Source of the DNA: a virus
Taxonomy: Duplodnaviria > Heunggongvirae > Uroviricota > Caudoviricetes
Length of the DNA: 37,677 bases
Direction: 5' to 3' (one strand)
IMG/VR virus record: IMGVR_UViG_2541047910_000002
Position numbers and translations under genes: made by a program
In this document: positions 3,165 through 36,542 of the stretch, piece by piece
Position numbering within the stretch: the stretch's first letter is position 1
Layout of the letters: every line of letters starts with the position of its first letter
Notes under the pieces: model-generated
The model's database searches: none
Told to the model about the DNA's origin: nothing
What the model saw: only the letters and a program-made list of their open reading frames with translations

Positions 3165-4265
3165 TCATTCCATTTCGAAATCATCAATCCTCACTTCAAG
3201 CTCCAGACTGGTCGTAAAACCGTTATCCGGGCTGACGGTATGCGTCAGAGTCGTAATGGTCCATTCCGCATCATCTATCGGCTGTTTAAAGCCACTGACT
3301 TTCACTGGCATTTCCGTGTAGAGATCTGCCCGACCTTCCGCCAGTTGTAGCGAGAATGACGCAACGCCGCGTTGCAGGCGTTCCCACTGCATTTTCGCCG
3401 CTCGTTCGGCGTTGCTCCGGTTGGCATAAGTGCGATTAAGTACCAGCACGTTTTCATCCGTACCCACCAGGTAATCGCCCTGCTTCGCTTCCGGCTCTTT
3501 CTTCTGCTTCTTAGTCCTGCGCTTACGCTTCACCGTGGTGCTTTCTTTCTTCGAGGGTTCGCGAGTATGCAACCAGCTGGCAATTACGCCCGTGTAAGCT
3601 CCGCGATCTGCCAGGGTAAAGCGGTGACTGTCGCCGTCCTTACGTGTGATAGTGATCACCGGCAGTGGTTTACCGCTGGCACTTTTACCCTGTCCCTGTC
3701 GGATGAATAACAGATTGCCATTTTTCACTGACGCGATAGCACCGTACTGGCGCGCCAGCCGCATCAGAAAACTGCCGTCACTCTCATTAGTCTGGTCTAT
3801 ATGTTCCACGGGCTTATCCGACAGGTCATTACCCAGTGCCATCTTCAGCTTGTGACGCGCGGCTATTTCCTTGACCACTTCCCCGACAGTGGTCTTGTGC
3901 CACGACTTTTCACGGCGGGTATTCAGCGTTTCACGAAAATCAGCACTTCGCGCCCGGATAGTCAGGCGGTCCGGTGCGCCAGTGTGTTCAATCTCGTCCA
4001 CCGTGAATGCCCCTTTCGGGAAAAGCGGCTGCCCCTTCCAGCCCAGCGCCAGCGTAATGACCGCACCACGGCGCGGCAGCGCTATTTTTCCATCGGCGTC
4101 GTCCAGCTCCAGATCAAGCTGGTCCGCTTCAAAGCCCCGGTTATCCGTCAGCGTCAGCCTCATCAGGCGGTTATCCAGCACAGTGGTGATATCCCTGCCC
4201 TCAATACTGATGCTGAATGCGGGAGTTTTGTTGCCTTTGTTAAGCAGTTCAGAGCTGAAATTCAC
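3165..4265 (-). CDS. D: tail protein D (late control gene D)
   Basis: 366-aa ORF at the P2 gpD position immediately upstream of ogr; recognised as gpD-like; start is GTG in the track. Confidence 0.8.
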   Translation of the reverse strand: MNFSSELLNKGNKTPAFSISIEGRDITTVLDNRLMRLTLTDNRGFEADQLDLELDDADGKIALPRRGAVITLALGWKGQPLFPKGAFTVDEIEHTGAPDRLTIRARSADFRETLNTRREKSWHKTTVGEVVKEIAARHKLKMALGNDLSDKPVEHIDQTNESDGSFLMRLARQYGAIASVKNGNLLFIRQGQGKSASGKPLPVITITRKDGDSHRFTLADRGAYTGVIASWLHTREPSKKESTTVKRKRRTKKQKKEPEAKQGDYLVGTDENVLVLNRTYANRSNAERAAKMQWERLQRGVASFSLQLAEGRADLYTEMPVKVSGFKQPIDDAEWTITTLTHTVSPDNGFTTSLELEVRIDDFEME

Positions 4266-8829: not shown

Positions 8830-10002
8830 TTACGCGCTGACCTGGCTGGCGAAATTCACCAGGTACTGATCGGTGATGCGCTGGCGCAGCATCAGATTTT
8901 CAAGTGGCGGCACTGGCGTGTAGTCATAGTCGATGGTGAGTTTTCCGGCTTTCAGCGTGTCTTTGTCGTTCACCGACTCATCCAGCCAGCAATCACCACC
9001 AATGAGATAGCCCTGACTGACCAGGTTGCGCATTTTGGCGCGGATACCTTCGATAATGTCGCGGGCCAGCGACGGGTTCAGCGGTTTGTCCACCGCCCAC
9101 ATATGTGCTTCTGCCATTGTGTCCATCAGTACCTGCGCTGTGCGGGTGTAGTTTTCGAAGGCAAAAAGCGGATCATCGCTCAGACAGCGGGAACCCCAGA
9201 AGCGGAAACCATCCTTGCGCACAAGCGTGGTGACGTCGTTCTGGTTAAGCAGTCCCGCATCGGTTGCCGGGTCCTGCAGATCCCAGAACACATCAGCAGA
9301 AATTCCGGTGACACCGTTCACGCCCACGTTGGACAGGCTTTTGTGCCACCCGGTCTGCTCATCAATTTTGGCACGCAGACCAAGCGCACGGGCGGTGGCA
9401 TATGCCGTTGCTTCGGCATTCAGCACCGTGTCCCAGCCAGTAAAGTCGGGCCAGATCAGCATCCCTTCGCGCTGGCTGAAGTTTTCACGGTAAGTGATTG
9501 CCTCCTGCACAGTCTTGCAGCCATACGCTGACAGGTAAGCAAACCCACGCAGGCTTTGCGCCACACTCAGCAACTCAGTAGCTACCGCCTTGGTGTCGTG
9601 ACCTGGTACACCCAGAATGCGCGGTTTAACGCCGAGCTGTGACTGAGCAGATAACAGAGCTTTCATGCCTGTTTTTTTACCTTCAGCAGTCACTGCGCCG
9701 ATGATATTGGTCGTGGTTTCTTCTTCCGTTTCACCCTGCGGCACACGCACAACAACGGTCACGGGTTTTGCCTGGTCAGCGATGGCATCCAGCGAACGGG
9801 CCAGCGTGCCGGACTCACCCGCTTTACCGCTGGCAGTCAGCACATCAGTGATCAGCACGGGTTTATTAAGAGGAAACATTTTTGCATCGGCATCATCGCC
9901 CGTGCAGACCATACCCACGATGGCGGTGCTCACCGTGGTAATGGATCGGGTGCCTTCGTTGACTTCAACAACGCGCACCCCGTGGTGGTAATCCTGAGCC
10001 AT
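8830..10002 (-). CDS. FI: contractile tail sheath protein FI
   Basis: 390 aa; recognised as P2 gpFI-like sheath. Confidence 0.9.
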
Positions 10003-10078
10003 AGTGGCGAACCTCCTGATTGGATTAGGCTTCGCCCTATGTTGAAGTGATTGTGCCTGACAAACAGCTAAGCGCAGT

Positions 10079-10096
10079 TGTACCGTTATTCACACA
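10079..10096. promoter_or_regulatory. late promoter activator dyad TGT-N12-ACA (P_F-like)
   Basis: TGTaccgttattcacACA upstream of FI; near-identical to the element at 22110-22127. Confidence 0.5.
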
Positions 10097-10144
10097 AAAT
10101 GACGGTATTTGTCTGCTTTCAGGGATAATCAAAATAAAGCTGAT

Positions 10145-10711
10145 TCAGGGAGATTTATTGCTCTTATTTGCCGGAAATTTTCGATAAATGGTAGAAACGC
10201 CTACATCAAAAATCAGTGCAATACGCTGTCTTGATTCTCCGGCCTCGAGTAAACGTCCAATCTGTGCCCACTGTTCAGTGGTCAACTTAGGACGGCGTCC
10301 ACCTACTCTGCCTTTAGCACGAGCTGCAGCCAGCCCTGCCCGGGTACGTTCAACTATCAGTTCGCGTTCCATTTCAGCCAGGGCACCCATGACATGAAAA
10401 AAGAAACGGCCCATTGGGGTACTGGTATCAATACTGTCAGTCAGGCTTCGGAAATTCACACCACGCTGGCGCAACTCTTCTATCAGCGTAACAAGATGCC
10501 GCATACTGCGCCCCAACCTGTCCAGCTTCCAGACAACCAGCGTGTCTCCTGCCAATAGTGTCCTGAGCAGTTTTTTAAGCCCCGGTCTGTCGGACTTAGT
10601 GCCACTGATTTTGTCCTCAAAAATCCGCTCACATCCCGCGCAGTTCAGCGCATTACGTTGCAAATCGGTGTTCTGGTCATTTGTTGACACGCGTACATAG
10701 CCAATAAGCAT
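10145..10711 (-). CDS. serine DNA invertase (Gin/Pin/Hin family)
   Basis: MLIGYVRVSTNDQNTDLQRNAL... with catalytic Ser in YVRVS and C-terminal HTH; closely matches the Gin/Pin sequence from memory; start set at third codon with a GGAG SD 6 nt upstream. Confidence 0.9.
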   Translation of the reverse strand: MLIGYVRVSTNDQNTDLQRNALNCAGCERIFEDKISGTKSDRPGLKKLLRTLLAGDTLVVWKLDRLGRSMRHLVTLIEELRQRGVNFRSLTDSIDTSTPMGRFFFHVMGALAEMERELIVERTRAGLAAARAKGRVGGRRPKLTTEQWAQIGRLLEAGESRQRIALIFDVGVSTIYRKFPANKSNKSP

Positions 10712-10766
10712 GATCATCTCCCTGAATAAAAATAGGGGATGATGCCAGTTAGCCGTAATCGCTGCA

Positions 10767-10792
10767 TTTTCTTAAACGTTGGTTTGGGAGAA
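10767..10792. repeat. invertase crossover site (gix/hix-like), invertase-proximal
   Basis: 26-bp imperfect palindrome ttttcttaaacg-tt-ggtttgggagaa; inner 14 bp (10779-10792) is the exact inverted repeat of 12670-12683. Confidence 0.7.
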
Positions 10793-11152
10793 GCGGCAAA
10801 ACGGGATGTGGGAACAGGGGAAAATCAGATACCGGATATGGCTTCTTTTGCCAGTGGTGATGGATGGATGAAATTACCCAACGGTAAAATCCTGCAATAT
10901 GGTCGAGGTGCGGTTACGCCGACATTATCGACGCAAACAATGAGAATTACATTCAGCATCCCTTTTCCTAAAAAAGTGGACTGCGCCATGCTTACTCATT
11001 CTGGTGATGGTGGTGCACCTTTAGGTGCTGGACGGGGATTCGTGATGACCGCAGAAGGTCCAACATTAACCGGTTTTAATTCCGCTTACAGAACTGCATC
11101 AACCAGTTCCACAGTATCGATGAATTACAGTTGGTGGGCTGTTGGTGAGTAA
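10781..11152 (+). CDS. alternative tail-fibre C-terminal segment (Sv'-like), silent in this orientation
   Basis: open frame begins at the crossover site with GLGE, the same residues that follow the crossover in H; no independent start; in frame with H constant part after inversion. Confidence 0.6.
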   Translation, partial: GLGEAAKRDVGTGENQIPDMASFASGDGWMKLPNGKILQYGRGAVTPTLSTQTMRITFSIPFPKKVDCAMLTHSGDGGAPLGAGRGFVMTAEGPTLTGFNSAYRTASTSSTVSMNYSWWAVGE

Positions 11153-11172
11153 TTTTATTAAGGGTGATTTAT

Positions 11173-11616
11173 ATGAACGAATATGTTTATAGCGCAAGGC
11201 ATAATGCTTTTTTCCCTGTGGATATGATTGATAAATATAAATCAGAGGGATGGGATTTATCAGATGCTAAAGAGGTGAATCAAAATATTATCAGTGAATT
11301 TATGGCTGAACCGCCACAAGGAAAAATCCGTATTGCCGGAGGTGATGGGCAGCCCGCGTGGGCAGATATTCCTCCACCCACGCATGAAGAACTTATTGAA
11401 ATTACTGAATCAGAAAGACAGCTACTAATTAACCAGGCCAACGAATACATGAACAGTAAGCAATGGCCCGGCAAAGCCGCTATTGGTCGTCTGAAAGGTG
11501 ATGAACTGGCGCAATATAATTTGTGGCTGGATTATCTGGACGCACTGGAGCTGATCGATACTTCCGGTGCGCCAGATATTGAATGGCCTACGCCTCCGGC
11601 AGTTCAGGCCAGATGA
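11173..11616 (+). CDS. tail-fibre assembly chaperone (U'-like), alternative orientation
   Basis: about 147 aa downstream of Sv'; C-terminal ...DYLDALELIDTSGAPDIEWP resembles the C-terminus of the converging 11588-12190 gene (...AVLDYIDAVTATDTSTAPDVIWPELP). Confidence 0.7.
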   Translation: MNEYVYSARHNAFFPVDMIDKYKSEGWDLSDAKEVNQNIISEFMAEPPQGKIRIAGGDGQPAWADIPPPTHEELIEITESERQLLINQANEYMNSKQWPGKAAIGRLKGDELAQYNLWLDYLDALELIDTSGAPDIEWPTPPAVQAR

Positions 11617-12190
11617 CATCCGGCGCGGTGCTGGTATCTGTTGCCGTCACCGCGTCAATGTAATCCAGCACAGCGTTAAGTCTGGTTGTTTCTGCCTGCG
11701 TCAGTTTATGTCCGGCCTGCAATTTCAGTTGAATCAGACTGATGGAAGCCATTGCTGCATCAATCAGTGACTGGCGCTGTGCTTCTGCCGCGTCTACTGC
11801 GGCACCGTGTTGTGCCTCAGTATCTGTCACCCATTTTTCACCATCCCATTTATCGTATGGCGTTAACGGGGCGATAGTGGTTGTTTCTTCGGGGTAATCA
11901 CCCGGAGTTGTGATTTCTTTTGCGTCTCCCGTTTCGGTGTTATAGACGATTTCACCGCGATGGTCTGGCACATATTCCCATGAGTTTAAATCCATCGAAC
12001 GGCAGATAGCATAACCCGCCTTATGTGTGCCAGGGGCATCTAAACAGGAATATGCAGGGATACCGACGCCAACAGCAAGATATTCATTTGAAGTGGAAAT
12101 ATATTCTCGAGTTTCACCATCATAGTTATAGACGGTAATATTCCCTGCTTTGGTGGCGATAATCTCGCTATTTAATATGGCGTTATCCAT
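11588..12190 (-). CDS. G: tail-fibre assembly chaperone (gpG/U-like), expressed orientation
   Basis: 200 aa immediately downstream of H, start overlapping the H stop; C-terminal motif shared with the converging paralogue. Confidence 0.75.
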   Translation of the reverse strand: MDNAILNSEIIATKAGNITVYNYDGETREYISTSNEYLAVGVGIPAYSCLDAPGTHKAGYAICRSMDLNSWEYVPDHRGEIVYNTETGDAKEITTPGDYPEETTTIAPLTPYDKWDGEKWVTDTEAQHGAAVDAAEAQRQSLIDAAMASISLIQLKLQAGHKLTQAETTRLNAVLDYIDAVTATDTSTAPDVIWPELPEA

Positions 12191-13731
12191 TATGCAGCCC
12201 TCACAATATAGTTAAATGCAATATTCCTTGGTCGAACCCTAAAACCAGCCCCTGCGCCTGCTCCAGTTGGTGGCAATTCGATAGAGGGGTATGCTGTTGC
12301 AGAGGAATATAAACCTTCACGGGAATCATAATCAGTCGTCATATAGTTAGACGTATTATCAGAAACAGTTTCTGTCGGTCTGGTAACCAGACGATAAGAG
12401 CCAGTGGTTGGTGACCTGACCAGACCAAAACTTTCAACCAGAGTGGCTTTTTGAAAGCTTAATAATCCCCGACCACTGTCAGCTCCACGCCCGTCATCCC
12501 AGCCACGAATAAACTCACCACGTAAATCAGGCAATTTATTTGTCGGATAAGCCTTTGCCAGTTCCGGGTATTCTTCAGCAGAAAAAGCTGCACCGTTGCA
12601 TTTCAGCCAGCCTGTCGGCGGAATGGCTGAAGGCCATGGAACAGGTACACCAACAGGTAATGCCGAACCTTCTCCCAAACCAAGGTATGTGAGAAGACCA
12701 GCTACATCCTTTCCACTCAAATTAGTCAGCGTATTGTCCAGCGGTTGTTTACCTGCCAGCGCATTAAGCATTGTCGTGGCAAAGTTCGGGTCATTCCCCA
12801 GCGCTGCCGCCAGTTCGTTCAGTGTATCCAGTGCCGCAGGTGCAGAACCCACCATTGCCGCAATCGCCGATTTCACAAATGCCGTGGTGGCAATCTGTGT
12901 ATTGTTGACCGACTGTGCCGCAGTAGGTGCGGTTGGCGTTCCGGTGAGTGCCGGACTCGACAGCGGCGCTTTCAGTGCCAGCGCATTGTTAATGGTGGTA
13001 CTGAATTTCGGATCATTGTTAATGGCTGCGGCTATTTCTTTCAGCGTGTCCAACGTGGCTGGCGCACCATTAATAAGAGCCGTCAGAGCCGCCTGAACAA
13101 ACGCGGTGGTCGCAATCTGCGTGGTGTTATTCCCTGCGGCTGGCGTTGGCGCTTTGGGTGTCCCGGTAAACGTCGGACTTTCTTTGGGTGCATACTGTGA
13201 ATGCGGGTCCGGTGCGGCAAGATGTTTTGCCATCTGATCATCCGCGTACACCTTCAGCTCCAGTGCCTTGTCATCCACATACTTGCGGGTTGCCAGCACT
13301 ACGGCAGGGTCGATTTTCAGGGTGATATTGTCCGTGCTGCTGGTAATCAGCACCATGCGCACGGTCTGAGTGCGCCCGCTACCTTCAGCCAGTTGCGGCT
13401 TATAGCTTTCCGGGCAGTTGCCCACGGCAATCAATGCCCCGGACTCATCAAACAAGCCCACTTCACGTATCCACCAACCGCCCTCGTTTTCAGGGATCAC
13501 CTGTTCGGCAATAATCTGGCTGCTGTTCTGCGGGTCGATATAGAGCATATTCAGCGCAGCCCGGCGTTTCTCATTTACCAGTGCAGTCTGCTTTGAGTCT
13601 GGCGTTGGCAATACTCCGCCGCCATCGCCGACCGCCATATGGGTAATTTTTAGCGGCACACCGAGCGCGGCGGCGCTGGCAAGTTTCGCCGCGCCAATAT
13701 CCGTCAGCAGGGTATAAAATTTTGTGCTCAT
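12190..13731 (-). CDS. H: tail fibre protein H (constant N-terminal part plus variable C-terminal part)
   Basis: 513 aa; N-terminus MSTKFYTLLTDIGAAKLA is P2 gpH-like; contains the second crossover site in frame at codon 350. Confidence 0.85.
   Translation of the reverse strand: MSTKFYTLLTDIGAAKLASAAALGVPLKITHMAVGDGGGVLPTPDSKQTALVNEKRRAALNMLYIDPQNSSQIIAEQVIPENEGGWWIREVGLFDESGALIAVGNCPESYKPQLAEGSGRTQTVRMVLITSSTDNITLKIDPAVVLATRKYVDDKALELKVYADDQMAKHLAAPDPHSQYAPKESPTFTGTPKAPTPAAGNNTTQIATTAFVQAALTALINGAPATLDTLKEIAAAINNDPKFSTTINNALALKAPLSSPALTGTPTAPTAAQSVNNTQIATTAFVKSAIAAMVGSAPAALDTLNELAAALGNDPNFATTMLNALAGKQPLDNTLTNLSGKDVAGLLTYLGLGEGSALPVGVPVPWPSAIPPTGWLKCNGAAFSAEEYPELAKAYPTNKLPDLRGEFIRGWDDGRGADSGRGLLSFQKATLVESFGLVRSPTTGSYRLVTRPTETVSDNTSNYMTTDYDSREGLYSSATAYPSIELPPTGAGAGAGFRVRPRNIAFNYIVRAA
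12670..12695. repeat. invertase crossover site (gix/hix-like) inside H
   Basis: ttctcccaaacc-aa-ggtatgtgagaa; the two half-sites match at 10 of 12 positions; inner 14 bp inverted-identical to 10779-10792. Confidence 0.7.
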
Positions 13732-14333
13732 GGATTCACTCTCATTGTGTCAATAACATGGACCGCCCCGCCTTCATGCGCGGTGCCGCCAGAAATAATT
13801 GTTTCGTTGATATACGGATAGATCGTGATTTCTTCGCCAAGATAGCTGGCGGCCCCCACCCAATGCGGACCGCTGGTCTGCAGATTGATGGACATGCCGA
13901 TCATGTGACGGCTACATGGTTTGGCATCGCTTATCAGCCGCTCAAGTTCCAGATAGGTATCTTCAGTGATGCCCTGGTCCTGCACGCCGATATCCAGACG
14001 AAACGTGCCCGGTGCCTCTCCGGTCTGCCACCACTCAATAATGCGGATTAGAAAGCCGAACGGCTCCACCACCCGCCGCACGGCACTGGTGGTCCCTTTA
14101 TGCTGATGAATATAAAAAGCATCCTTCACCACCTGGCGCTTGACGCTTTCTGTCCAGCCTTCGTCCCAGCGATCCACAGAGAACGCCCAGGCGAGATAAG
14201 GCAGGAAGCTGACCGGGCAGGTAGCCGGATTCCACAAGTCACGCAGCGGCACCTGCAGATCAGAAATCCCGCTACAGGTCTGCGCCAGTCGGCGCTCCAG
14301 TGAAGTTGACCCCGATGGCAGCAGACTATTCAT
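13728..14333 (-). CDS. I: baseplate assembly protein I
   Basis: 201 aa; recognised as P2 gpI-like; overlaps H start. Confidence 0.8.
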   Translation of the reverse strand: MNSLLPSGSTSLERRLAQTCSGISDLQVPLRDLWNPATCPVSFLPYLAWAFSVDRWDEGWTESVKRQVVKDAFYIHQHKGTTSAVRRVVEPFGFLIRIIEWWQTGEAPGTFRLDIGVQDQGITEDTYLELERLISDAKPCSRHMIGMSINLQTSGPHWVGAASYLGEEITIYPYINETIISGGTAHEGGAVHVIDTMRVNP

Positions 14334-25009: not shown

Positions 25010-25822
25010 TTATTTTACTCTAAAGGCATCATCGGCTTTATGTGGTATAGGAGCATAACGCTCGGTACTTACTCGATGTAGCACCGCAAATATATTCAAA
25101 GGTGAACCATCCTTTAACCTAAGAGAAACATACATTGGCATCGTTGGTGTTAACCCCCGATTTAGGCCAACAGTGGCACCACTTACTTTCATACCATTTT
25201 CTAAAGATGCATTTTCAATAAACCCCTGAGTGAATGTGCTTTCTCCATTGACCATAACAACAACATCATCATGCTTAATTGTATTATCCATAATCATCAT
25301 AAAATCAGCAATTGGTTCTAAAAAATCCATTGCTGATAATTTCACTATCTTACCCCCATCACCATCCTTAATATCATAGGAGAGGTTTGAATACTTCTCA
25401 GGATTAGGAATATACGTATTTTGTTGATTAATGACATCTATAATTTGTCTTATTGCCACATCGATCCCATACGAATAAAGATCAATATATAGCGTTTGAG
25501 TAAGCAGAGCAGGCAAGGATATATTCTGGCAACGTATTGGTATAAATTTACACTTCCCGGACGATGCCTTAATTAAAGCATTTTGCCATTCCATTTTTAC
25601 CATGTTACTTGCCAAACTATTTTCTGTGACAAAAAAGAAAAAGAACGATACATTCTCCATTCCTAAATTCATCTTGTCAATAATACCCTCTCCGGGTTGG
25701 ATAGACCAAGAATCGTAGAATACGTTATCACGCCCATAAACATCTGCTAGTTTTTCCGCTATAACACTTACAAACCTTTTGTCACGGTGATTATGACTTA
25801 GAAAGATCATAGCATGCCCCAT
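25010..25822 (-). CDS. TIR-domain protein with an uncharacterised C-terminal domain (accessory gene)
   Basis: N-terminal about 130 aa shows TIR-like pattern (MIFLSHNHRDKRFV ... VTENSLASNMVKMEW with candidate catalytic Glu); C-terminal about 140 aa unassigned; A+T-rich; possible true start at 25810 (MIFLSH, GGGG SD). Confidence 0.6.
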   Translation of the reverse strand: MGHAMIFLSHNHRDKRFVSVIAEKLADVYGRDNVFYDSWSIQPGEGIIDKMNLGMENVSFFFFFVTENSLASNMVKMEWQNALIKASSGKCKFIPIRCQNISLPALLTQTLYIDLYSYGIDVAIRQIIDVINQQNTYIPNPEKYSNLSYDIKDGDGGKIVKLSAMDFLEPIADFMMIMDNTIKHDDVVVMVNGESTFTQGFIENASLENGMKVSGATVGLNRGLTPTMPMYVSLRLKDGSPLNIFAVLHRVSTERYAPIPHKADDAFRVK

Positions 25823-26401: not shown

Positions 26402-27364
26402 TTAACCTTCATAGTTCATGCCGCCAAGATACGAAGGTATCATCATTAATGATTTAACCCTTTCTTTTTCTTTTTCGGTGAGATGACGACATGCAAATGG
26501 GTAAATATTGATCAAAAATGTCTTGAGTTCGTCAAATGCCTCATCTGAATATAGGGTCCCAGATCTTAACTCATTCATTATTGTCATGACCCATTTTATA
26601 AACACAGTTGGCATCATTACATCAGCTATATCTTCCCAGCCATCAATAAGGCCATTGTTTGTTTGTTTTCTAACATACTGCCGGAGTGCTTGGTCGCAGT
26701 TGCCTCGACACGTCCAAAAAATATGTTCATTATACTCTGGTTCTTTTTCGTAGTCGGTGCGGATTCTTTGCCATATAGTGATAATTCCCTTGTCGTCTTG
26801 AGACAGAAGCTCTTTCTTGCAAACTTTGCATTTTAAGCTAGGTTCATCGGAAAATATTCTTGCGGGTTTGGGGTTTTCTGTTTTCCACTCAGATAACGAC
26901 TTTGGGAAGTACCTTTCGGCAATTTCCAATCCTCTGGAAGAGTGTAAAAGTTCCCTCTCTATTTTCTCTTTATCGAAAACCTGAAATTCAATTCGTCCTT
27001 TCAACCCGTCAAGTATTCCAGACAGACCTGCACTAGCAAGAGTTGAATAGAACCCGATAAATCCTTGGCAGTTATTCGCTATTACTCGATCAGTAATATT
27101 TGCATCATCTCCTGGATTAACTGAATTTCCACTATGAGCTTTATGCTTACAGCTTACCAACCAACGGATAATTGTTTCCCCGCCGACACCAGTCCTTTTT
27201 TCTTCGGCTATAATATCAACCCCACCGTCAGCCCCTCTATCTGGGTCAGATATAATTTTATATCCCAGAAAAGCTAAGAAGTCGCGAGAAAAAAGTTCAA
27301 ATGTGTCTTGCAGCCCTGTTGCTTTATGAGCCTCTGGTATTTCTTTGAAGTCTAATACTGGCAT
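26402..27364 (-). CDS. Mrr-like PD-(D/E)xK nuclease-domain protein with Cys-rich C-terminal domain (accessory gene)
   Basis: N-terminal FLGYKIISDPDRGADGGVDIIAEEK ... WLVSCKHK resembles the Mrr_cat restriction-endonuclease core; C-terminal half has CKVCKK and CRGNCDQ Cys pairs; A+T-rich. Confidence 0.5.
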   Translation of the reverse strand: MPVLDFKEIPEAHKATGLQDTFELFSRDFLAFLGYKIISDPDRGADGGVDIIAEEKRTGVGGETIIRWLVSCKHKAHSGNSVNPGDDANITDRVIANNCQGFIGFYSTLASAGLSGILDGLKGRIEFQVFDKEKIERELLHSSRGLEIAERYFPKSLSEWKTENPKPARIFSDEPSLKCKVCKKELLSQDDKGIITIWQRIRTDYEKEPEYNEHIFWTCRGNCDQALRQYVRKQTNNGLIDGWEDIADVMMPTVFIKWVMTIMNELRSGTLYSDEAFDELKTFLINIYPFACRHLTEKEKERVKSLMMIPSYLGGMNYEG

Positions 27365-27646: not shown

Positions 27647-28057
27647 ATGGTTACGGTTGATGAATTAAAGATGAAATATCCGGACGCGAATGCCTGGCAA
27701 ATGGGCGACAGCCCTGAACTGGCTAACGAGCTTGCAGCGCTTATCAAAAAAGGAATTAAAACGGCCTCCTGCGGCTCTTATGCCTCTTACCAGAAGGAAG
27801 AGTTTGCCCCAAGGATTGGGAGCTATAACATCATCCTTAACGGCCAAGATGTACCGGTATGCGTGACCCGGCTGGTGTCGATGCGACTGGTGCGTTTTTG
27901 TGATGTTACTGCCGAGTTCGCTCGCAAGGAAGGTGAAGGCGATTTGAGTCTTGAATATTGGCAGAGAGAGCATCAACGATTTTTTACATGTGAAGGTTAC
28001 TTTTCTGATGATATGGAGCTGATTATGGAAGAGTTTGAAGTTGTTGATGTTTTGTAA
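27647..28057 (+). CDS. ASCH-domain protein
   Basis: 136 aa; pattern ...ELIKKGIKTASCG...FTCEGYFSD... typical of ASCH/PUA-like fold; AAAGGA SD 8 nt upstream. Confidence 0.6.
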   Translation: MVTVDELKMKYPDANAWQMGDSPELANELAALIKKGIKTASCGSYASYQKEEFAPRIGSYNIILNGQDVPVCVTRLVSMRLVRFCDVTAEFARKEGEGDLSLEYWQREHQRFFTCEGYFSDDMELIMEEFEVVDVL

Positions 28058-28833: not shown

Positions 28834-31248
28834 TTAATACAGGTTCCGCCACTTATCATCTTCCTGCAAACGCTGGTTCCGATAGAAGATACGCAGGCCT
28901 GCTCCTGACGGAATACTGCCGCCGCGAAGGAGTAAATCGACCTCTTTCTCGCTACCATCAAATCCTCTGGACTTCAGCTCATAGACGAGCTGCAGTCGCT
29001 GATGGTCTGTAATTCGCTGTTTGTAGTCTTTACGCCGTTTCGGTTTAACCAGGCGTAACCTTGCAGCCAGTTCCCGGCGCTCTTTTTTGCTCATACTGTG
29101 CAGGTAATCGTGCAACTCCTTGTCATCCATGCGGGTAATGTCCGTTCTGATGTCCCCATCAGCTGATTTATCTTTCTCCTGTTGGTTCAAATTTTCAGCA
29201 AGGGGACAGTTATTGCCACGAGTCCAAGGGGCGCAAGCGCCCTGGTCGGCTGCCGCCTCCTGAACGTCAACGGCTTTACGAACCATTTTCCACTTCACTG
29301 CATGGGTGCAGATCTTGCCCTCTGCAATGGGTGACCAGATGCCATAAATACGAATGCCGTGATCGCCATAGGCGGTCGGCTCTTCGTTGATTTCATAAGC
29401 GGTTCTGATGAGGTGATATTTACGGGGAACCAGTACGCCGCCCTGCTTCATGATGTAGGTGGCAAAACAACCAGCATCAGCAGCAGCCAGAATGGCATCA
29501 AGACGCGGGTTATCCAGTACCGGCGCACCTGCTTTTTTGTCACCCTGTTGCCTTGCCGCCTGACCAGCCAGCAAGCGAAGTTCACGGTAAGCCTGACGCC
29601 CCGGAATACCAAAGAAGCGGAATTGCTGAACACGATGCAGAGACGCCCAGGCATTCACGTATTCAGCGTTATCACGCAGAGATTTACCCGTTTCCTTGCT
29701 GATCTCGCCAGCCAGACCACGACCGTCAATGTTCTTACTGATATATTTCGCGATGTAGCTTGTCGGCGTTCCTTTGCGCGGGTTAATCAACTCAGACTTA
29801 AAGCGCGGCCCAGTGTTATTGCCCAGCTCCTCGCGGTCTTCACGGATGGCAAACTTACGCAGTAATGCAGTGATGGCACGGCGGTCTTTTTTGCGCATGA
29901 AACACAACAGGTGCCAGTGAACTGTGCCATCATGATGCGGCTCAGCCACCCGCACGCCATACCAGCGCAACCCGGCTTTGTGCATCGCCTTACGAAATGC
30001 AGCAAACATGCCGACCAGATAATCGCTGCTTTGTCTTACCGTCGCGTTTGTCCAGGTCGGGTTTGGTCTGCCGTTATTTAGCGTGGAATGGAAACGCGAC
30101 GGACAGGTGATAGTGTAGAAAACGGCGCAGTCACCGCGCATTTCCGCAATAAGCTCCAGACCTTTAACACAGGCCATCATCTCATTGCGGCGATGCGCAG
30201 GGTTGCTGCTGCTGGCGTTTACCACCTCCTCCATGTCCAGCGTGTCGCCGTCTTCGTTCACCAGTTCATGAGAACGGAAAAACTCCAGCGACTTACGGCG
30301 CTGCTCACGTTTATGCATCACGGCTTCATAGCTGACATAAGGAGATGCTTTTTTGCTGACCAGGCAAACAGCGCGCAACTGCTCTTCCCGCCATTCGCAA
30401 CGCATCTTCCATAATTTCCGATACCACCAGTCGGCGCACAACATACGCGCCAGCGAACCCGGAATGAGTTCATAGGGCACGGGTTTACGGCGGTTTCTTT
30501 TCCGACGGAGTTGCTCAAACGCAGGTGGGATGACATCCAGACGCAGGGTTTCCGCTGCCACCTTTTCCCATGTCTTGCGGATTTCTTCTGGCTTAACGTC
30601 ATCGGTGGCATACAAATCACCACAAGCTGCATCAAGGCACATACTCATATGCGCAGCTACCAGGGTGGACAGGCGTTTCACCTGATCCTGACTCATTTCA
30701 GGCAGGATCAGCAGGCCGTCCAGCCCTTCATGGCTTGCCATAAAGCGAAAAGATGCAGATAGCTGACTGTCGCGTACATGCTCCAGTCGTTCCAGACATG
30801 GCTTAATCGTCTCACGTAAATAGCGGGAATAAGCCTTTGGCCTGCCCAGGCTGCTGAAGTATTCAATACGTTGCATCAGCGGCTTGCTGATATGGGAAGG
30901 CAGGGCGTTGACGTCCGCCAGAATGACCATGTCTGAATTAAAACGCTGCTGCTCATGCGCCAGCTTTGCCCGGCTAATGAGCTTATCCTGCTCCATTTCG
31001 CGCTGGACAGGATCACGTGATTCATTAAAGAAATAACGCTCCCAGACCTGATCACTCAGTGCCTCGCGGCGCAACTGTTCCTGCTCGTTATCGGCAGCGT
31101 ACAGAGTGATCAGGTTTGAAAGCGTAGAAACCGGCGCAACTTCCGCCGGGTCCAGATAAGGGTTAATGGCCTTTTTCGGGCTGTTCCATGAGAATGCTGC
31201 GGCAGCCTCGTTAAAGCCGCAGCAGTTGTTCATATCGGCATGACTCAT
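28834..31248 (-). CDS. A: rolling-circle replication initiator A
   Basis: 804 aa with HxH (VHWHLL) and YIAKYISK active-site tyrosine motifs typical of P2 gpA; ATG overlaps the dam stop. Confidence 0.9.
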
Positions 31249-32102
31249 GCACGTACTCCGTACACGGCAGAACTATCCACGCCACGCGAATAATCAAATC
31301 CCATCCAGCAGCGCGGCCCGGAAACAGCAATGATTTCTGTTGCTGATTTACCCTCGCCAGTTGCCACACCGATGCTGCGTTTAACCTTGATATAGTGGTG
31401 AGTAAAATTGCGATACAGCGAACGGATCAGGGATGTGTCACTGTTAGAAACAATGACCGGATGTCCTTCTGATGACCGATGTTCAAGAATGGATGCCAGG
31501 TGATACTGGTCATCTTCAGTGAAACCATCAGTGTGATAGCCGGAAAACGTACCGTCATATGGCGGATCGCAATACACCACATCTCCCGCCTTCAACATCG
31601 CCAGCGTTTCATCAAAGCTGGCGCAGATAAACGTTGCTCGCTGGGCTTTTTCTGCAAATGTGCGAAGTTCTTTTTCAGGGAAATACGGATTTTTATAATT
31701 ACCGTAGGGAATGTTGAAATGCCCGCTCTTGTTATAGCGACATAAACCACGGTAACCGTGACGATTGAGATACAGGAAATATACCGCTTTCATGAAATCA
31801 GTAATTTCAGTTGAGCAGTTAAACTCCTGCCTTATGTTGTAATAAGCCACCTCCCTGTTTGCGATCTCAAATAAAACTCTGGCGCGAGATATAAACGATT
31901 CACAATCAGCGGCAACCTTTTTATAGAGGTTGATTAAATCAGGATTAATATCCGCAACCAGATAGCTGGGATAATCCGTTTCCATCATCACAGCACAGGA
32001 ACCCGCGAAAGGTTCAACCAGTCGCGGGCCAGCAGGAAGGTATTTTTTCAGTTCTGGCATAATGGCGGTTTTATTTCCCGCCCATTTCAGGATAGTGCTC
32101 AT
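31245..32102 (-). CDS. dam: DNA adenine methyltransferase (Dam-like)
   Basis: LKWAGNK...LVEPFAGS (AdoMet motif) and CDPPY catalytic motif; start placed at MSTILKWAG, overlapping the upstream stop. Confidence 0.85.
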
Positions 32103-32326
32103 ACAGCACCTCCGTTGTAATGTTTGCCTTTCAGTTCTGCGATTTCCTGACAGGTAATGCAAAGCTGCACTCCCGGAATGGCGCGGCGTCGTGCTGGCGG
32201 AATTGGCGCTTCACATTCAATGCAAAGTACGCGTGACACGCCCGGTGATTTGGCACGGGCTGCACGGATATGGCGCTGGCGTTCTTCTTCAACGCGCTGC
32301 TGTACGAGATCCATTGCATCAGCCAT
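32099..32326 (-). CDS. TraR/DksA-type C4 zinc-finger protein
   Basis: 75 aa with CIECEAPIP...CITCQ (CxxC-N17-CxxC). Confidence 0.7.
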   Translation of the reverse strand: MADAMDLVQQRVEEERQRHIRAARAKSPGVSRVLCIECEAPIPPARRRAIPGVQLCITCQEIAELKGKHYNGGAV

Positions 32327-34865: not shown

Positions 34866-36542
34866 ATGAATTCATTTGCCATCGTTATACTCTTATTAGC
34901 ATTTCTCGCCCCTGTTCTAGCTGTAATATTATTTAAACAAAGTAAAAAACACAAAGCGGCTATAGATAACCTGACAGCTAACAACATAGCCCTTTCTAAC
35001 CAACTGATTGAAAATCAAGAAAAACTAGCACAGACCGTACGAGAATTATCAGAGCTTGAAGGGCGAGCAGCACCATTGTGGCAATACGAAGAATTGCACA
35101 GCGCAGTAATGGATGCAGAGAATAAGATAAAAAATGCGGACTCAATAGCCAAGCAAAAAATAGATGAAGCCCAAATTAAGGCGGCTAAAACAGTAAACGA
35201 AGCAAATTATCAAGCTCAGATGACAATAAGCAACGCTAATAGCGAAGCTATAGCAATCACCAAAGACGCTCGCGATGCACGCCTGAAAGCCAAAGAACGT
35301 CTTGATAATGCTAATAATAAAGCAAATGAGCTAATCTCAAATGCTAATGACAATGCAGTAAAAATTATTTCTGATGCAGAAGAAAGAGCAAAGGAGATTG
35401 CTGGTTCAGCATATGAAGCTAAAGAGTTTGCAGAAAAATATGAAGCAGTTGCAAAATCAATGAAAAATAAAATTGAAGGTTATGGTGATGAATGGATCAT
35501 CCCTAACCGTAGTGTACTTGATGAGCTGGCAGAAAATTATGAATTTACAGATGCAGGCAAGGAATTACAAAAAGCCAGAGAGTTAACCAAATCATTAATA
35601 AAAACTAATAAAGCTGCTTCGTGTGATTATGTTGAGCAAAACAGGCGTAATACTGCCATAAACTTTGTTTTGGATGCCTTCAATGGAAGAGTTGACAGTA
35701 TTTTATCAAAAGTCAAACACAACAATTTTGGAAAACTTTCCCAAGAAATAAAAGATGCATTTCAACTAGTAAATTACAATGGCTCTGCCTTTAGGTCCGC
35801 AAAAATAAGTGACATCTATCTTCAGGCAAGACTCAACGAGCTAAAATGGGGTGTAGCAGTTAATGAAATTATGCTCGAAGAAAAAGAAGAGCAAAGAAGG
35901 ATTAAAGAACAGCTTCGTGAAGAGGAAAGAGCTCGTAGAGAATATGAAAAAGCGATAAAAGAAGCTGAAAAAGAAGAAAAAGCTATTCAGCAAGCTATAA
36001 ATAAAGCAACGAAAGAACTTATGCTTGCAAATGAAGAACAACGCTTAGCTTTAGAGCAAAAAATAGCTGAACTACAGTTAAAATATGAAGAAGCTGAAGC
36101 TAAAAATCAACGAGCTATTTCTATGGCTCAACAAACCAGATCAGGCCACGTCTATATCATTAGTAATATTGGTTCATTTGGCGAAGATGTATATAAAATT
36201 GGAATGACACGCCGCCTTGAACCACTTGATCGTGTTCGTGAACTCGGAGATGCTAGTGTTCCTTTTTCGTTCGATGTTCATGCGATGATTTATAGTGATG
36301 ATGCACCATCATTAGAAAACCATCTGCATAAAGTTTTCAACGAAAAGCAGGTCAATAAAATTAACTCACGAAAAGAGTTTTTTAACGTAAATTTAAAAGA
36401 AATCAAATCAGTTATTGAAGACATGAACATCAACGCCCACTGGACAATGTTTGCAGAGGCGAAAGAATATAGAGAGTCTCTATCTATTGAGCAGGAGCGC
36501 AAAGCAGCCACTTCCGCCAACGATGAACTACATGTTGCTTAG
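34866..36542 (+). CDS. membrane-anchored coiled-coil protein with C-terminal T5orf172/GIY-YIG-like domain (DUF4041-like architecture), accessory gene
   Basis: N-terminal TM helix, long Ala/Lys/Glu-rich coiled-coil, C-terminal GHVYIISN...YKIGMTRR...VPFSFDVHAMIYSDDAPSLENHLHKVF...RKEFFNV; AAAGGA SD; markedly A+T-rich; inserted between cI and int. Confidence 0.6.
   Translation: MNSFAIVILLLAFLAPVLAVILFKQSKKHKAAIDNLTANNIALSNQLIENQEKLAQTVRELSELEGRAAPLWQYEELHSAVMDAENKIKNADSIAKQKIDEAQIKAAKTVNEANYQAQMTISNANSEAIAITKDARDARLKAKERLDNANNKANELISNANDNAVKIISDAEERAKEIAGSAYEAKEFAEKYEAVAKSMKNKIEGYGDEWIIPNRSVLDELAENYEFTDAGKELQKARELTKSLIKTNKAASCDYVEQNRRNTAINFVLDAFNGRVDSILSKVKHNNFGKLSQEIKDAFQLVNYNGSAFRSAKISDIYLQARLNELKWGVAVNEIMLEEKEEQRRIKEQLREEERARREYEKAIKEAEKEEKAIQQAINKATKELMLANEEQRLALEQKIAELQLKYEEAEAKNQRAISMAQQTRSGHVYIISNIGSFGEDVYKIGMTRRLEPLDRVRELGDASVPFSFDVHAMIYSDDAPSLENHLHKVFNEKQVNKINSRKEFFNVNLKEIKSVIEDMNINAHWTMFAEAKEYRESLSIEQERKAATSANDELHVA

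Follow-up and report, generated by a model that had tools for sequence, protein, structure and literature searches.

An intact-looking Pin/Gin-type inversion switch for tail-fibre tips in a P2/186-like prophage of Escherichia coli

Genomic context of the locus

The window, that is, the whole 37.7-kb stretch of DNA analyzed here, contains prophage late genes in the P2-type order J-I-H-G ... FI-FII-E-T-U-D, together with gpA and ogr, and yields matches to the Pfam families Tail_P2_I, sheath and Phage_GPA. Gene I (13728-14333; Tail_P2_I) precedes the tail-fibre gene H in the late operon, and the ogr/Delta gene is located at the left junction. The first 25 kb match records of P2-like prophages with 96% identity over 85%, and in the chromosomal flank, ybjL-ybjM-grxA, identity to E. 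coli reaches 99.9%. This flank rules out an origin outside E. coli, which had been considered in view of the best identity of 96% in the fibre region and of top phage matches labelled Klebsiella. Judged by gene order and homology, the switch described below belongs to a P2/186-like (Peduoviridae) prophage in the E. coli chromosome, where it has H/G on one side and FI on the other.

Fibre tips and chaperones of the invertible segment

The tail-fibre protein H (12190-13731, minus strand; 513 aa) consists of two parts: a constant N-terminal part, codons 1-349 (12685-13731, minus strand), which is outside the invertible segment and matches Phage_tail_fib (9.3e-65, residues 1-150), and a variable C-terminal part, codons 350-513 plus the stop codon (12190-12684, minus strand), which is in the joined orientation and matches Collar (6.7e-15, residues 361-408). 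The expressed orientation also includes the chaperone gene tfa (11588-12190, minus strand; Caudo_TAP, 5.6e-32), a homologue of P2 G and e14 tfaE. The plus strand carries a silent alternative tip, the variable part of H' (10781-11152; Gp53-like_C, 2.3e-13), which at present is unjoined to H, and the gene for its cognate chaperone, Tfa' (11173-11616; Caudo_TAP, 3.8e-30). The two Tfa genes are convergent and overlap tail to tail by 29 bp. This map of domains and ORFs agrees with a preliminary description of the locus, made from the sequence by eye, in which the C-terminal part of H, two convergent tail-fibre assembly genes and a silent ORF had been assigned to the segment.

The crossover had been placed in codon 350 of H, with the residues GLGE following in both H and the silent ORF, and our reading of the codons is the same. 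Codon 350 is CTT (12684-12682), the central TT of the crossover site supplies its bases 2-3, and GLGE comes next; on the plus strand, the ORF at the crossover reads ..NV-GLGE-AAKRD.. in the same register as H. When positions 10779-12683 were reverse-complemented in silico, the silent tip was joined in frame to H codons 1-350 and an uninterrupted H' of 473 aa was obtained, as expected from the fusion predicted earlier. The ORFs of both cassettes are all intact, the fibre fusions being open at 513 and 473 aa.

The two tips have different folds (Collar and Gp53-like_C), with 34% identity over just 32 aa, and because these folds are unrelated, the tips may be assumed to differ in receptor specificity. 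The tip in the expressed orientation belongs to the StfE family of the tail-collar type and is 58.5% identical to e14 StfE, the two proteins being alike at both ends and unrelated over a mosaic distal patch (12226-12484). This 259-bp patch is the 7% of the query left uncovered in the matches to E. coli DNA; at the protein level, however, the patch is found elsewhere in E. coli, the H tip being present at 98-99% identity in other E. coli proteins. Tfa is 90% identical to e14 TfaE, whereas Tfa' is TfaP-like in its C-terminal half only (53% identity over 112 aa).

The silent-tip ORF had been described as lacking a start codon. It is not fully start-less: in-frame ATG codons at 10739 and 10742, preceded by AGGGG, are located outside the segment, just beyond site 1, and the silent tip is called as a 137-aa CDS by NCBI PGAP in relatives. 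Being outside site 1, these codons would start whichever cassette adjoins them, giving 137 aa in the present orientation and 179 aa in the flipped one. The ATGATGCCA motif is kept in e14, in the module of EPEC E2348/69 and in other relatives, and its conservation reaches Mu. The ATGATG is probably the reverse strand of an extended -10 element (TGgCATCAT) of the invertase promoter, and such an element on the opposite strand would account for motif conservation as far as Mu; a consensus promoter scan returned no sigma-70 promoter for the invertase gene. A tip beside the invertase that is not wholly silent, with a free receptor-binding domain and its chaperone made by lysogens, is in our judgement quite unlikely. 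It would require that the region be transcribed divergently from the invertase gene. The free-standing silent tip was rejected as a candidate, its apparent start being probably a by-product of the promoter sequence.

Crossover sites

Two 26-bp sites of the gix/hix/pix type, inverted relative to each other and compatible in their central dinucleotides (TT/AA), bound the segment. Site 1 (10767-10792; TTTTCTTAAACG-TT-GGTTTGGGAGAA; central dinucleotide 10779-10780) adjoins the invertase gene, and site 2 (12670-12695; TTCTCCCAAACC-AA-GGTATGTGAGAA; central dinucleotide 12682-12683) is within H. When the family consensus TTCTCNNAAACCNNGGTTTNNGAGAA was searched with up to 3 mismatches, sites 1 and 2 were the only two matches in the 37.7 kb, and 100 shuffles of the sequence gave 0 matches. 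As positive controls, the pattern was run on Mu, P7 and e14, where it recovered the annotated crossover points of gix and cix as well as the e14 sites.

The site search and the alignment of the cores bear out the inverted arrangement of the two sites around about 1.9 kb that was reported in the preliminary description. The sites themselves stand as described there, as imperfect 26-bp palindromes; their perfect inverted core was given as 14 bp and is in fact 15 bp (10779-10793 and 12669-12683), of which 14 bp fall within the 26-bp limits given. Site 1 departs from the consensus at 2 positions, both in its outer half (AAACG vs AAACC and TTTTC vs TTCTC). It is 1 base apart from the pinE-proximal site of e14 and base-for-base the same as the invertase-proximal site of the P2-like module of EPEC E2348/69.

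DNA invertase and predicted enhancer

The DNA invertase gene (10145-10717, minus strand; 188/190 aa) lies just outside site 1, where a Gin/Pin-like invertase had been noted. Its product matches the Pfam families Resolvase (1.2e-52) and HTH_7 (1.4e-15) and aligns with the sequence of the Gin crystal structure 3UJ3 (E 1.7e-92) over residues 1-184, with RVSTNDQ kept. The identity is 86% to e14 PinE, 78% to Cin of P7 and 75% to Gin. Translation likely begins at the ATG at 10711 (MLIGYVRVSTNDQ...), a codon that lines up with the first residue of Gin, Pin and Cin. The protein has the catalytic Ser (S9 in Gin, S10 in Hin) and keeps 77 of the 78 columns invariant across six reference invertases; the sole changed column, Y168F, is common to relatives that flip. 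The invertase-specific contacts with Fis and the enhancer involve basic residues at Hin positions 47, 48 and 51 together with Gln151, Arg154 and Leu155 (PMC3798978). In an alignment that took in Gin, Cin, Pin and a Hin-like invertase, these residues are kept as K, K and R in RPGLKKLLR and as Q..RL in QIGRLL. The family placement proposed earlier holds in alignment to Gin, Cin, Pin and a Hin-like invertase, PinE being the nearest member, and by its domains and invariant columns the protein belongs to the Gin/Cin/Pin/Hin clade of small serine recombinases and is intact.

A recombinational enhancer (sis, the Fis-binding element) is predicted by homology at 10626-10693, within the first codons of the invertase gene and about 90-150 bp from the centre of site 1, in keeping with the roughly 100 bp expected for such an element. 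This region is the counterpart of nt 19-86 of P7 cin, a stretch labelled in the P7 record as 'putative enhancer of Cin-mediated C-segment inversion', and its DNA gives a gap-free alignment with Mu gin and P7 cin. Among 7 invertase genes, the identity of synonymous codons is 0.73 in codons 1-6, 0.57 in codons 7-29 and 0.40 downstream. Fis cores (15 bp, G-N13-C) were sought by eye; the best candidates, at nt 22-36 and 71-85, form a pair with a spacing of 49 bp and a GC-rich second member. Since this pair is ambiguous, the placement of the enhancer was based on the P7 homology and the synonymous conservation instead.

Both orientations in related genomes

Both orientations of the segment are present in near-identical relatives. 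Among complete E. coli genomes, 79 records have the orientation of the window and 56 the flipped one, a record being counted when its coverage of the unflipped or of the flipped query was 80% or more. One such pair is formed by the E. coli genomes GPEC673 and GPEC1366, in which the module is about 95% identical to that of the window and both sites are identical to the window sites. Over 4806 bp, these two genomes are identical except that the 1881 bp separating the 15-bp cores are exactly reverse-complemented, and the fused ORF equivalent to H' is intact in GPEC1366. In EPEC E2348/69, the P2 locus NC_011601.1:2977580-2979467 was reported to flip within clones, 93±4% being in the forward orientation (Goldberg et al. 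2014, PMC4272514), and the reported ends of the inversion coincide with the centres of its two pattern-matched sites.

According to the preliminary description, a switch would be refuted by a single orientation together with a mutated invertase. This combination is contradicted for the family by the relatives in both orientations and, as far as can be read from the sequence, for the copy in the window too. The window itself holds one orientation only, and flipping of this copy is predicted by comparison with its relatives.

Comparison with known inversion systems

Assignment of the locus to the Mu G / P1 C / e14 P type, made earlier, is supported by the sites, the invertase, the in-frame tips and the Tfa pair, and its nearest counterpart is e14 P/Pin, not Mu G/Gin. 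The closest relative is the P segment of e14, a cryptic prophage of E. coli K-12 (ycfK/stfP-tfaP-tfaE-stfE-pinE), for which inversion within clones is documented. The gene order is the same, tip-Tfa-Tfa-tip in convergent pairs with the invertase beyond the segment, and tfaP and tfaE share the 29-bp tail-to-tail overlap. The invertases are 86% and the TfaE proteins 90% identical, the StfE-type tip is common at both ends, and the proximal sites are one base off. However, e14 is a defective lambdoid element with a short N-terminus as the constant part, whereas the window has a full-length P2-type H (349 codons) in an apparently complete P2/186-like prophage. The alternative tip is of the gp53-like type and bears no relation to that of StfP in e14 (26% identity), and the expressed-orientation tip differs from e14 StfE in the distal patch 12226-12484.

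The EPEC E2348/69 locus has the same order as the window: tip, TfaE-like Tfa, Tfa', gp53-like tip, invertase and sheath. As in the window, it adjoins the sheath gene, and its flipping within clones was measured (PMC4272514). It is, however, a remnant, with an integrase fragment in place of the constant part of H and a degenerate outer half-site, and its DNA is only 75-94% identical to that of the window by block.

The G/Gin system of Mu and the C/Cin systems of P1 and P7 follow the same logic, in which a constant Sc is combined with alternative Sv/Sv' tips and U/U' chaperones. They have the same 26-bp site type, invertases with 75-78% identity and a homologous enhancer region. Mu and P1 differ from the window in their phage backbones and tips and in their larger segments (3 kb and 4.2 kb), and the central dinucleotide in Mu is TC/GA vs TT/AA in the window. 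The Hin/hix flagellar switch of Salmonella shares the invertase family, the site type and the conserved Fis-contact residues; however, Hin inverts a promoter, no coding C-termini are swapped and no phage fibre is involved.

Discussion

We consider it highly probable (about 93%) that the window carries an intact-looking inversion switch of the Pin/Gin type that swaps the fibre tip together with its matching chaperone. In the proposed mechanism, dimers of the Pin-like invertase would bind both 26-bp sites and would presumably synapse on a Fis-bound enhancer near the start of the invertase gene. Cuts staggered by 2 bp would be made in both sites at the central TT/AA, and rotation and religation would invert 10779-12683. 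The late operon (..J-I-H-G) would enter the segment from one side only, with expression presumably from the late promoter alone, so that only the tip joined to H and the Tfa gene behind it would be expressed. The present orientation would thus give the 513-aa H with a collar-type, StfE-like tip and the TfaE-like chaperone, and the inverted one the 473-aa H' with a gp53-like tip and Tfa'.

Part of the evidence could also be read as that of a fossil switch, which inherited the architecture but no longer inverts, having a weakened site 1, subtle defects of the invertase or a lost enhancer, and in which the collar-type state is fixed. The single orientation in the one assembled window, the 2 consensus mismatches of site 1 and the Y168F change at an otherwise invariant column are in line with such decay. 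However, both sites are identical to those of GPEC673 and GPEC1366, which differ by a clean inversion, site 1 also has the same sequence as the EPEC site for which flipping in culture was measured, Y168F is common to active relatives, and the ORFs of both cassettes are all intact; we therefore regard a fossil as very unlikely.

A multiple-inversion, shufflon-like system with more than two tips could be imagined, as in the Min system of plasmid p15B or a three-repeat EPEC P2-like prophage, since such systems occur in P2-like prophages of E. coli. The whole window, however, has only two crossover sites at up to 3 mismatches and no third one in the pattern search at up to 4, long internal inverted repeats are absent from 9500-14000, and there are two tip ORFs and two Tfa genes only. 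On the first two of these grounds the multi-site arrangement was rejected, its probability being minimal. We give as little credence to RecA-dependent homologous recombination between short repeats, in place of the invertase, as the source of the inversions in relatives. Although the inverted repeats agree perfectly over 15 bp, efficient recombination by RecA usually needs a longer stretch. Moreover, the breakpoints match family-type 26-bp sites beside an intact invertase, and for the same sites in e14, Mu and P7 the invertase is the annotated or published agent; this route was likewise rejected.

The flipped state also bears on genome annotation. In two RefSeq records processed by PGAP, it appears as a 'pseudogene' plus a separate 137-aa protein, even though in the one such record checked the 473-aa fibre gene is intact. 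Tallies of fibre types or of intact prophages that draw on such split annotations may therefore be wrong.

This kind of switch is already known and is documented in close relatives: the locus represents a textbook host-range switch, fibre-side invertases have been noted repeatedly, and flipping has been measured in the same prophage family. For the prophage described here, prediction of the host range has two tips to consider, not one. With the tip and chaperone expressed in alternation, a lysogen population would release virions of two receptor specificities, which would amount to bet-hedging of the host range.

Organization of the fibre module

ORF listing, combined with a reading of the region 9600-13800, gave the gene order along the plus strand. 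The tail sheath gene FI (8830-10002, minus strand) is followed by a gene for a 190-aa recombinase with Pfam Resolvase and HTH_7 domains (10145-10717, minus), a start-less 137-aa ORF, the silent tip, whose start lies within a repeat (10739/10781-11152, plus; Gp53-like_C), the gene for its chaperone Tfa' (11173-11616, plus; Caudo_TAP), a second tail-fibre assembly gene (11588-12190, minus; Caudo_TAP), the 513-aa fibre gene H (12190-13731, minus; Phage_tail_fib and Collar) and, upstream of H, P2 gene I (13728-14333, minus; Tail_P2_I). The two assembly genes converge and share 29 bp at their 3' ends (11588-11616). Both chaperones conserve a C-terminal W-P-x-x-P (..DIEWPTPPAVQAR and ..DVIWPELPEA), and through this overlap both motifs are coded by the same DNA on opposite strands.

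Crossover sites and predicted fibre fusion

The preliminary description proposed inversion between two 26-bp imperfect palindromes, and the repeat finder returned them as its top inverted pair (10767-10793/12669-12695). Site 1, adjoining the recombinase gene (10767-10792), is TTTTCTTAAACG-TT-GGTTTGGGAGAA, and site 2, inside H (12670-12695), is TTCTCCCAAACC-AA-GGTATGTGAGAA; the two are self-complementary at 16/26 and 20/26 positions and are mutually inverted, with a perfect core of 15 bp. With up to three mismatches, the family consensus matched only these sites in the 37.7 kb and gave no matches in 100 shuffles. The same pattern recovered exactly the annotated G-segment boundaries of Mu and C-segment boundaries of P7, as well as the sites of the K-12 cryptic prophage e14, and is therefore a valid detector. 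Since just two sites are present, and long internal repeats were not found in the module, a simple two-state switch is indicated; a shufflon was rejected on the same two grounds.

In H, the second and third bases of codon 350 (CTT, 12684-12682) form the central dinucleotide, and G-L-G-E comes next; with GTT-GGT-TTG-GGA-GAA, the plus-strand ORF keeps the same register. The crossover had been placed in this codon with GLGE on both sides, and an in-frame fusion to the alternative tip had been predicted. Both hold, and all numeric details on sites and frame were correct: reverse complementing 10779-12683 in silico produces an open 473-aa product, H', with the gp53-like domain as its tail and Tfa' directly downstream in the same direction.

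Both orientations among relatives

Complete E. coli genomes were queried with the region in its present orientation and in an in silico flipped version. At a coverage of at least 80%, 79 records matched the former and 56 the latter, with a best identity of 96.0% for each. The modules of the GPEC673 and GPEC1366 prophages are ~95% identical to the window and share its two sites base for base; the only difference between the two over 4806 bp is that the 1881 bp enclosed by the 15-bp cores are exactly reverse-complemented, and no mismatches remain after flipping. Strains ET210 and WP4-S18-ESBL-08 are likewise inverted relative to each other at the same breakpoints, with segment lengths one base apart (H of ET210 is annotated as frameshifted). 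The suggested inversion is thus matched by both orientations among relatives, with breakpoints at the cores.

In two flipped relatives (L002 and L004, 2817-4238 in each), the RefSeq annotation (NCBI PGAP) breaks up the fused fibre gene: 3849-4238 is called an "incomplete" pseudogene and the gp53-like part a CDS of its own (137 aa), although the ORF in L002 is intact at 473 aa. Where the orientation is the opposite one, the silent tip is annotated as a protein in its own right.

Invertase and predicted enhancer

The recombinase had been described as Gin/Pin-like, and alignment agrees, with identities of 86% (e14 PinE), 78% (P7 Cin), 75% (Mu Gin) and 67% (a Hin-like phage invertase). The alignment with Gin crystal-structure sequences runs from end to end (E 1.7e-92). 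Of the 78 columns invariant among six reference invertases the protein keeps 77, the nucleophilic Ser among them; its sole change there, Y168F, is common to relatives that flip. All residues specific to Fis/enhancer-dependent invertases, namely basic residues at Hin 47, 48 and 51 together with Q151, R154 and L155 (McLean et al., PMC3798978), are present.

In the P7 record, nt 19-86 of cin are annotated as a putative enhancer; the window gene is gap-free against cin and gin across them, the equivalent interval being 10626-10693. At positions encoding the same amino acid in seven invertase genes, codon identity was 0.73 for codons 1-6, 0.57 for codons 7-29 and 0.40 for codons 30-140. The raised 5' value is as expected of an overlapping DNA element and is suggestive, not proof, of the predicted enhancer; its two Fis cores could not be placed confidently in that interval. 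Just outside site 1, ATGATGCCA (10733-10747; ATCATGCCA in Mu) is kept in e14, the EPEC module and the GPEC prophages, and gives an in-frame ATG to whichever tip occupies that end. Its opposite strand, TGGCATCAT, is a plausible candidate for the extended -10 of the invertase gene.

Comparison with e14 and EPEC E2348/69

The P segment of e14 is the nearest relative of the module. It has the same cassette layout, including the 29-bp tail-to-tail tfaP/tfaE overlap, with TfaE 90% and Pin 86% identical and nearly identical sites. In contrast to e14, the constant part here is a P2-type H, the second tip is gp53-like and unrelated to StfP, and the active tip carries a 259-bp mosaic patch (12226-12484). 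Blastn gave no match between this patch, in the distal part of the active H tip, and the StfE-type tips of e14 and the closest E. coli prophages, whereas its flanks are 90-98% identical on both sides; the pattern resembles a mosaic exchange in the receptor-binding region. Other E. coli proteins, mostly 176-aa or 276-aa ORFs, have the same tip, patch included, at 98-99% identity.

In clonal cultures of EPEC E2348/69, inversion was measured at NC_011601.1:2977580-2979467, with 93±4% forward (Goldberg et al., PMC4272514). The gene order there is that of the window (tip, TfaE-like Tfa, Tfa', gp53-like tip, invertase, sheath), the published inversion ends coincide with the centres of its two pattern-matched sites, and the invertase-proximal site is identical to site 1. 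The EPEC locus differs in having a truncated integrase fragment (NC_011601.1 2977243-2977593; 1444-1794 of the fetched record L012) abutting the crossover site instead of the H constant part. Its outer half-site is degenerate (TTCTTCTTTCCC), yet ~7% of the population was flipped in the published data.

Prophage context and cargo

The left 2.9 kb of the window is E. coli ybjL-ybjM-grxA (99.9% identity). The remainder is a P2/186-like prophage with gpA, a CI repressor and an integrase, whose first 25 kb are 96% identical over 85% to prophage-derived phage records. The module lies between G and FI, in the Z/fun hotspot of P2-like phages, where a 2024 preprint reports frequent DNA invertases accompanied by inversion of adjacent genes. 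Between the CI repressor and integrase genes, a 558-aa protein (34866-36542, plus) is matched by PADLOC to the anti-phage defence family PD-Lambda-1 (E 3e-120) and by Pfam to DUF4041, T5orf172 and MUG113. Adjoining the capsid and terminase genes are those for a 270-aa TIR-domain protein (25010-25822, minus; TIR_2, 1.3e-22; weak PADLOC TIR matches) and a 320-aa protein whose N-terminus is restriction-endonuclease-like (Mrr_cat; 26402-27364, minus); the two may be a defence pair in a P2 hotspot. The early region also encodes an ASCH-domain protein (27647-28057, plus) and a Dam-type (D12 class) N6-adenine methyltransferase (31245-32162, minus).

Conclusions

The system is of a kind already known, with near-identical annotated relatives, and its interest is therefore low. 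The reading proposed at the outset, a switch of the Mu G / P1 C / e14 P type, is supported and the observation confirmed: judged from sequence, the module is very probably (about 93%) a working Pin/Gin-type host-range switch.
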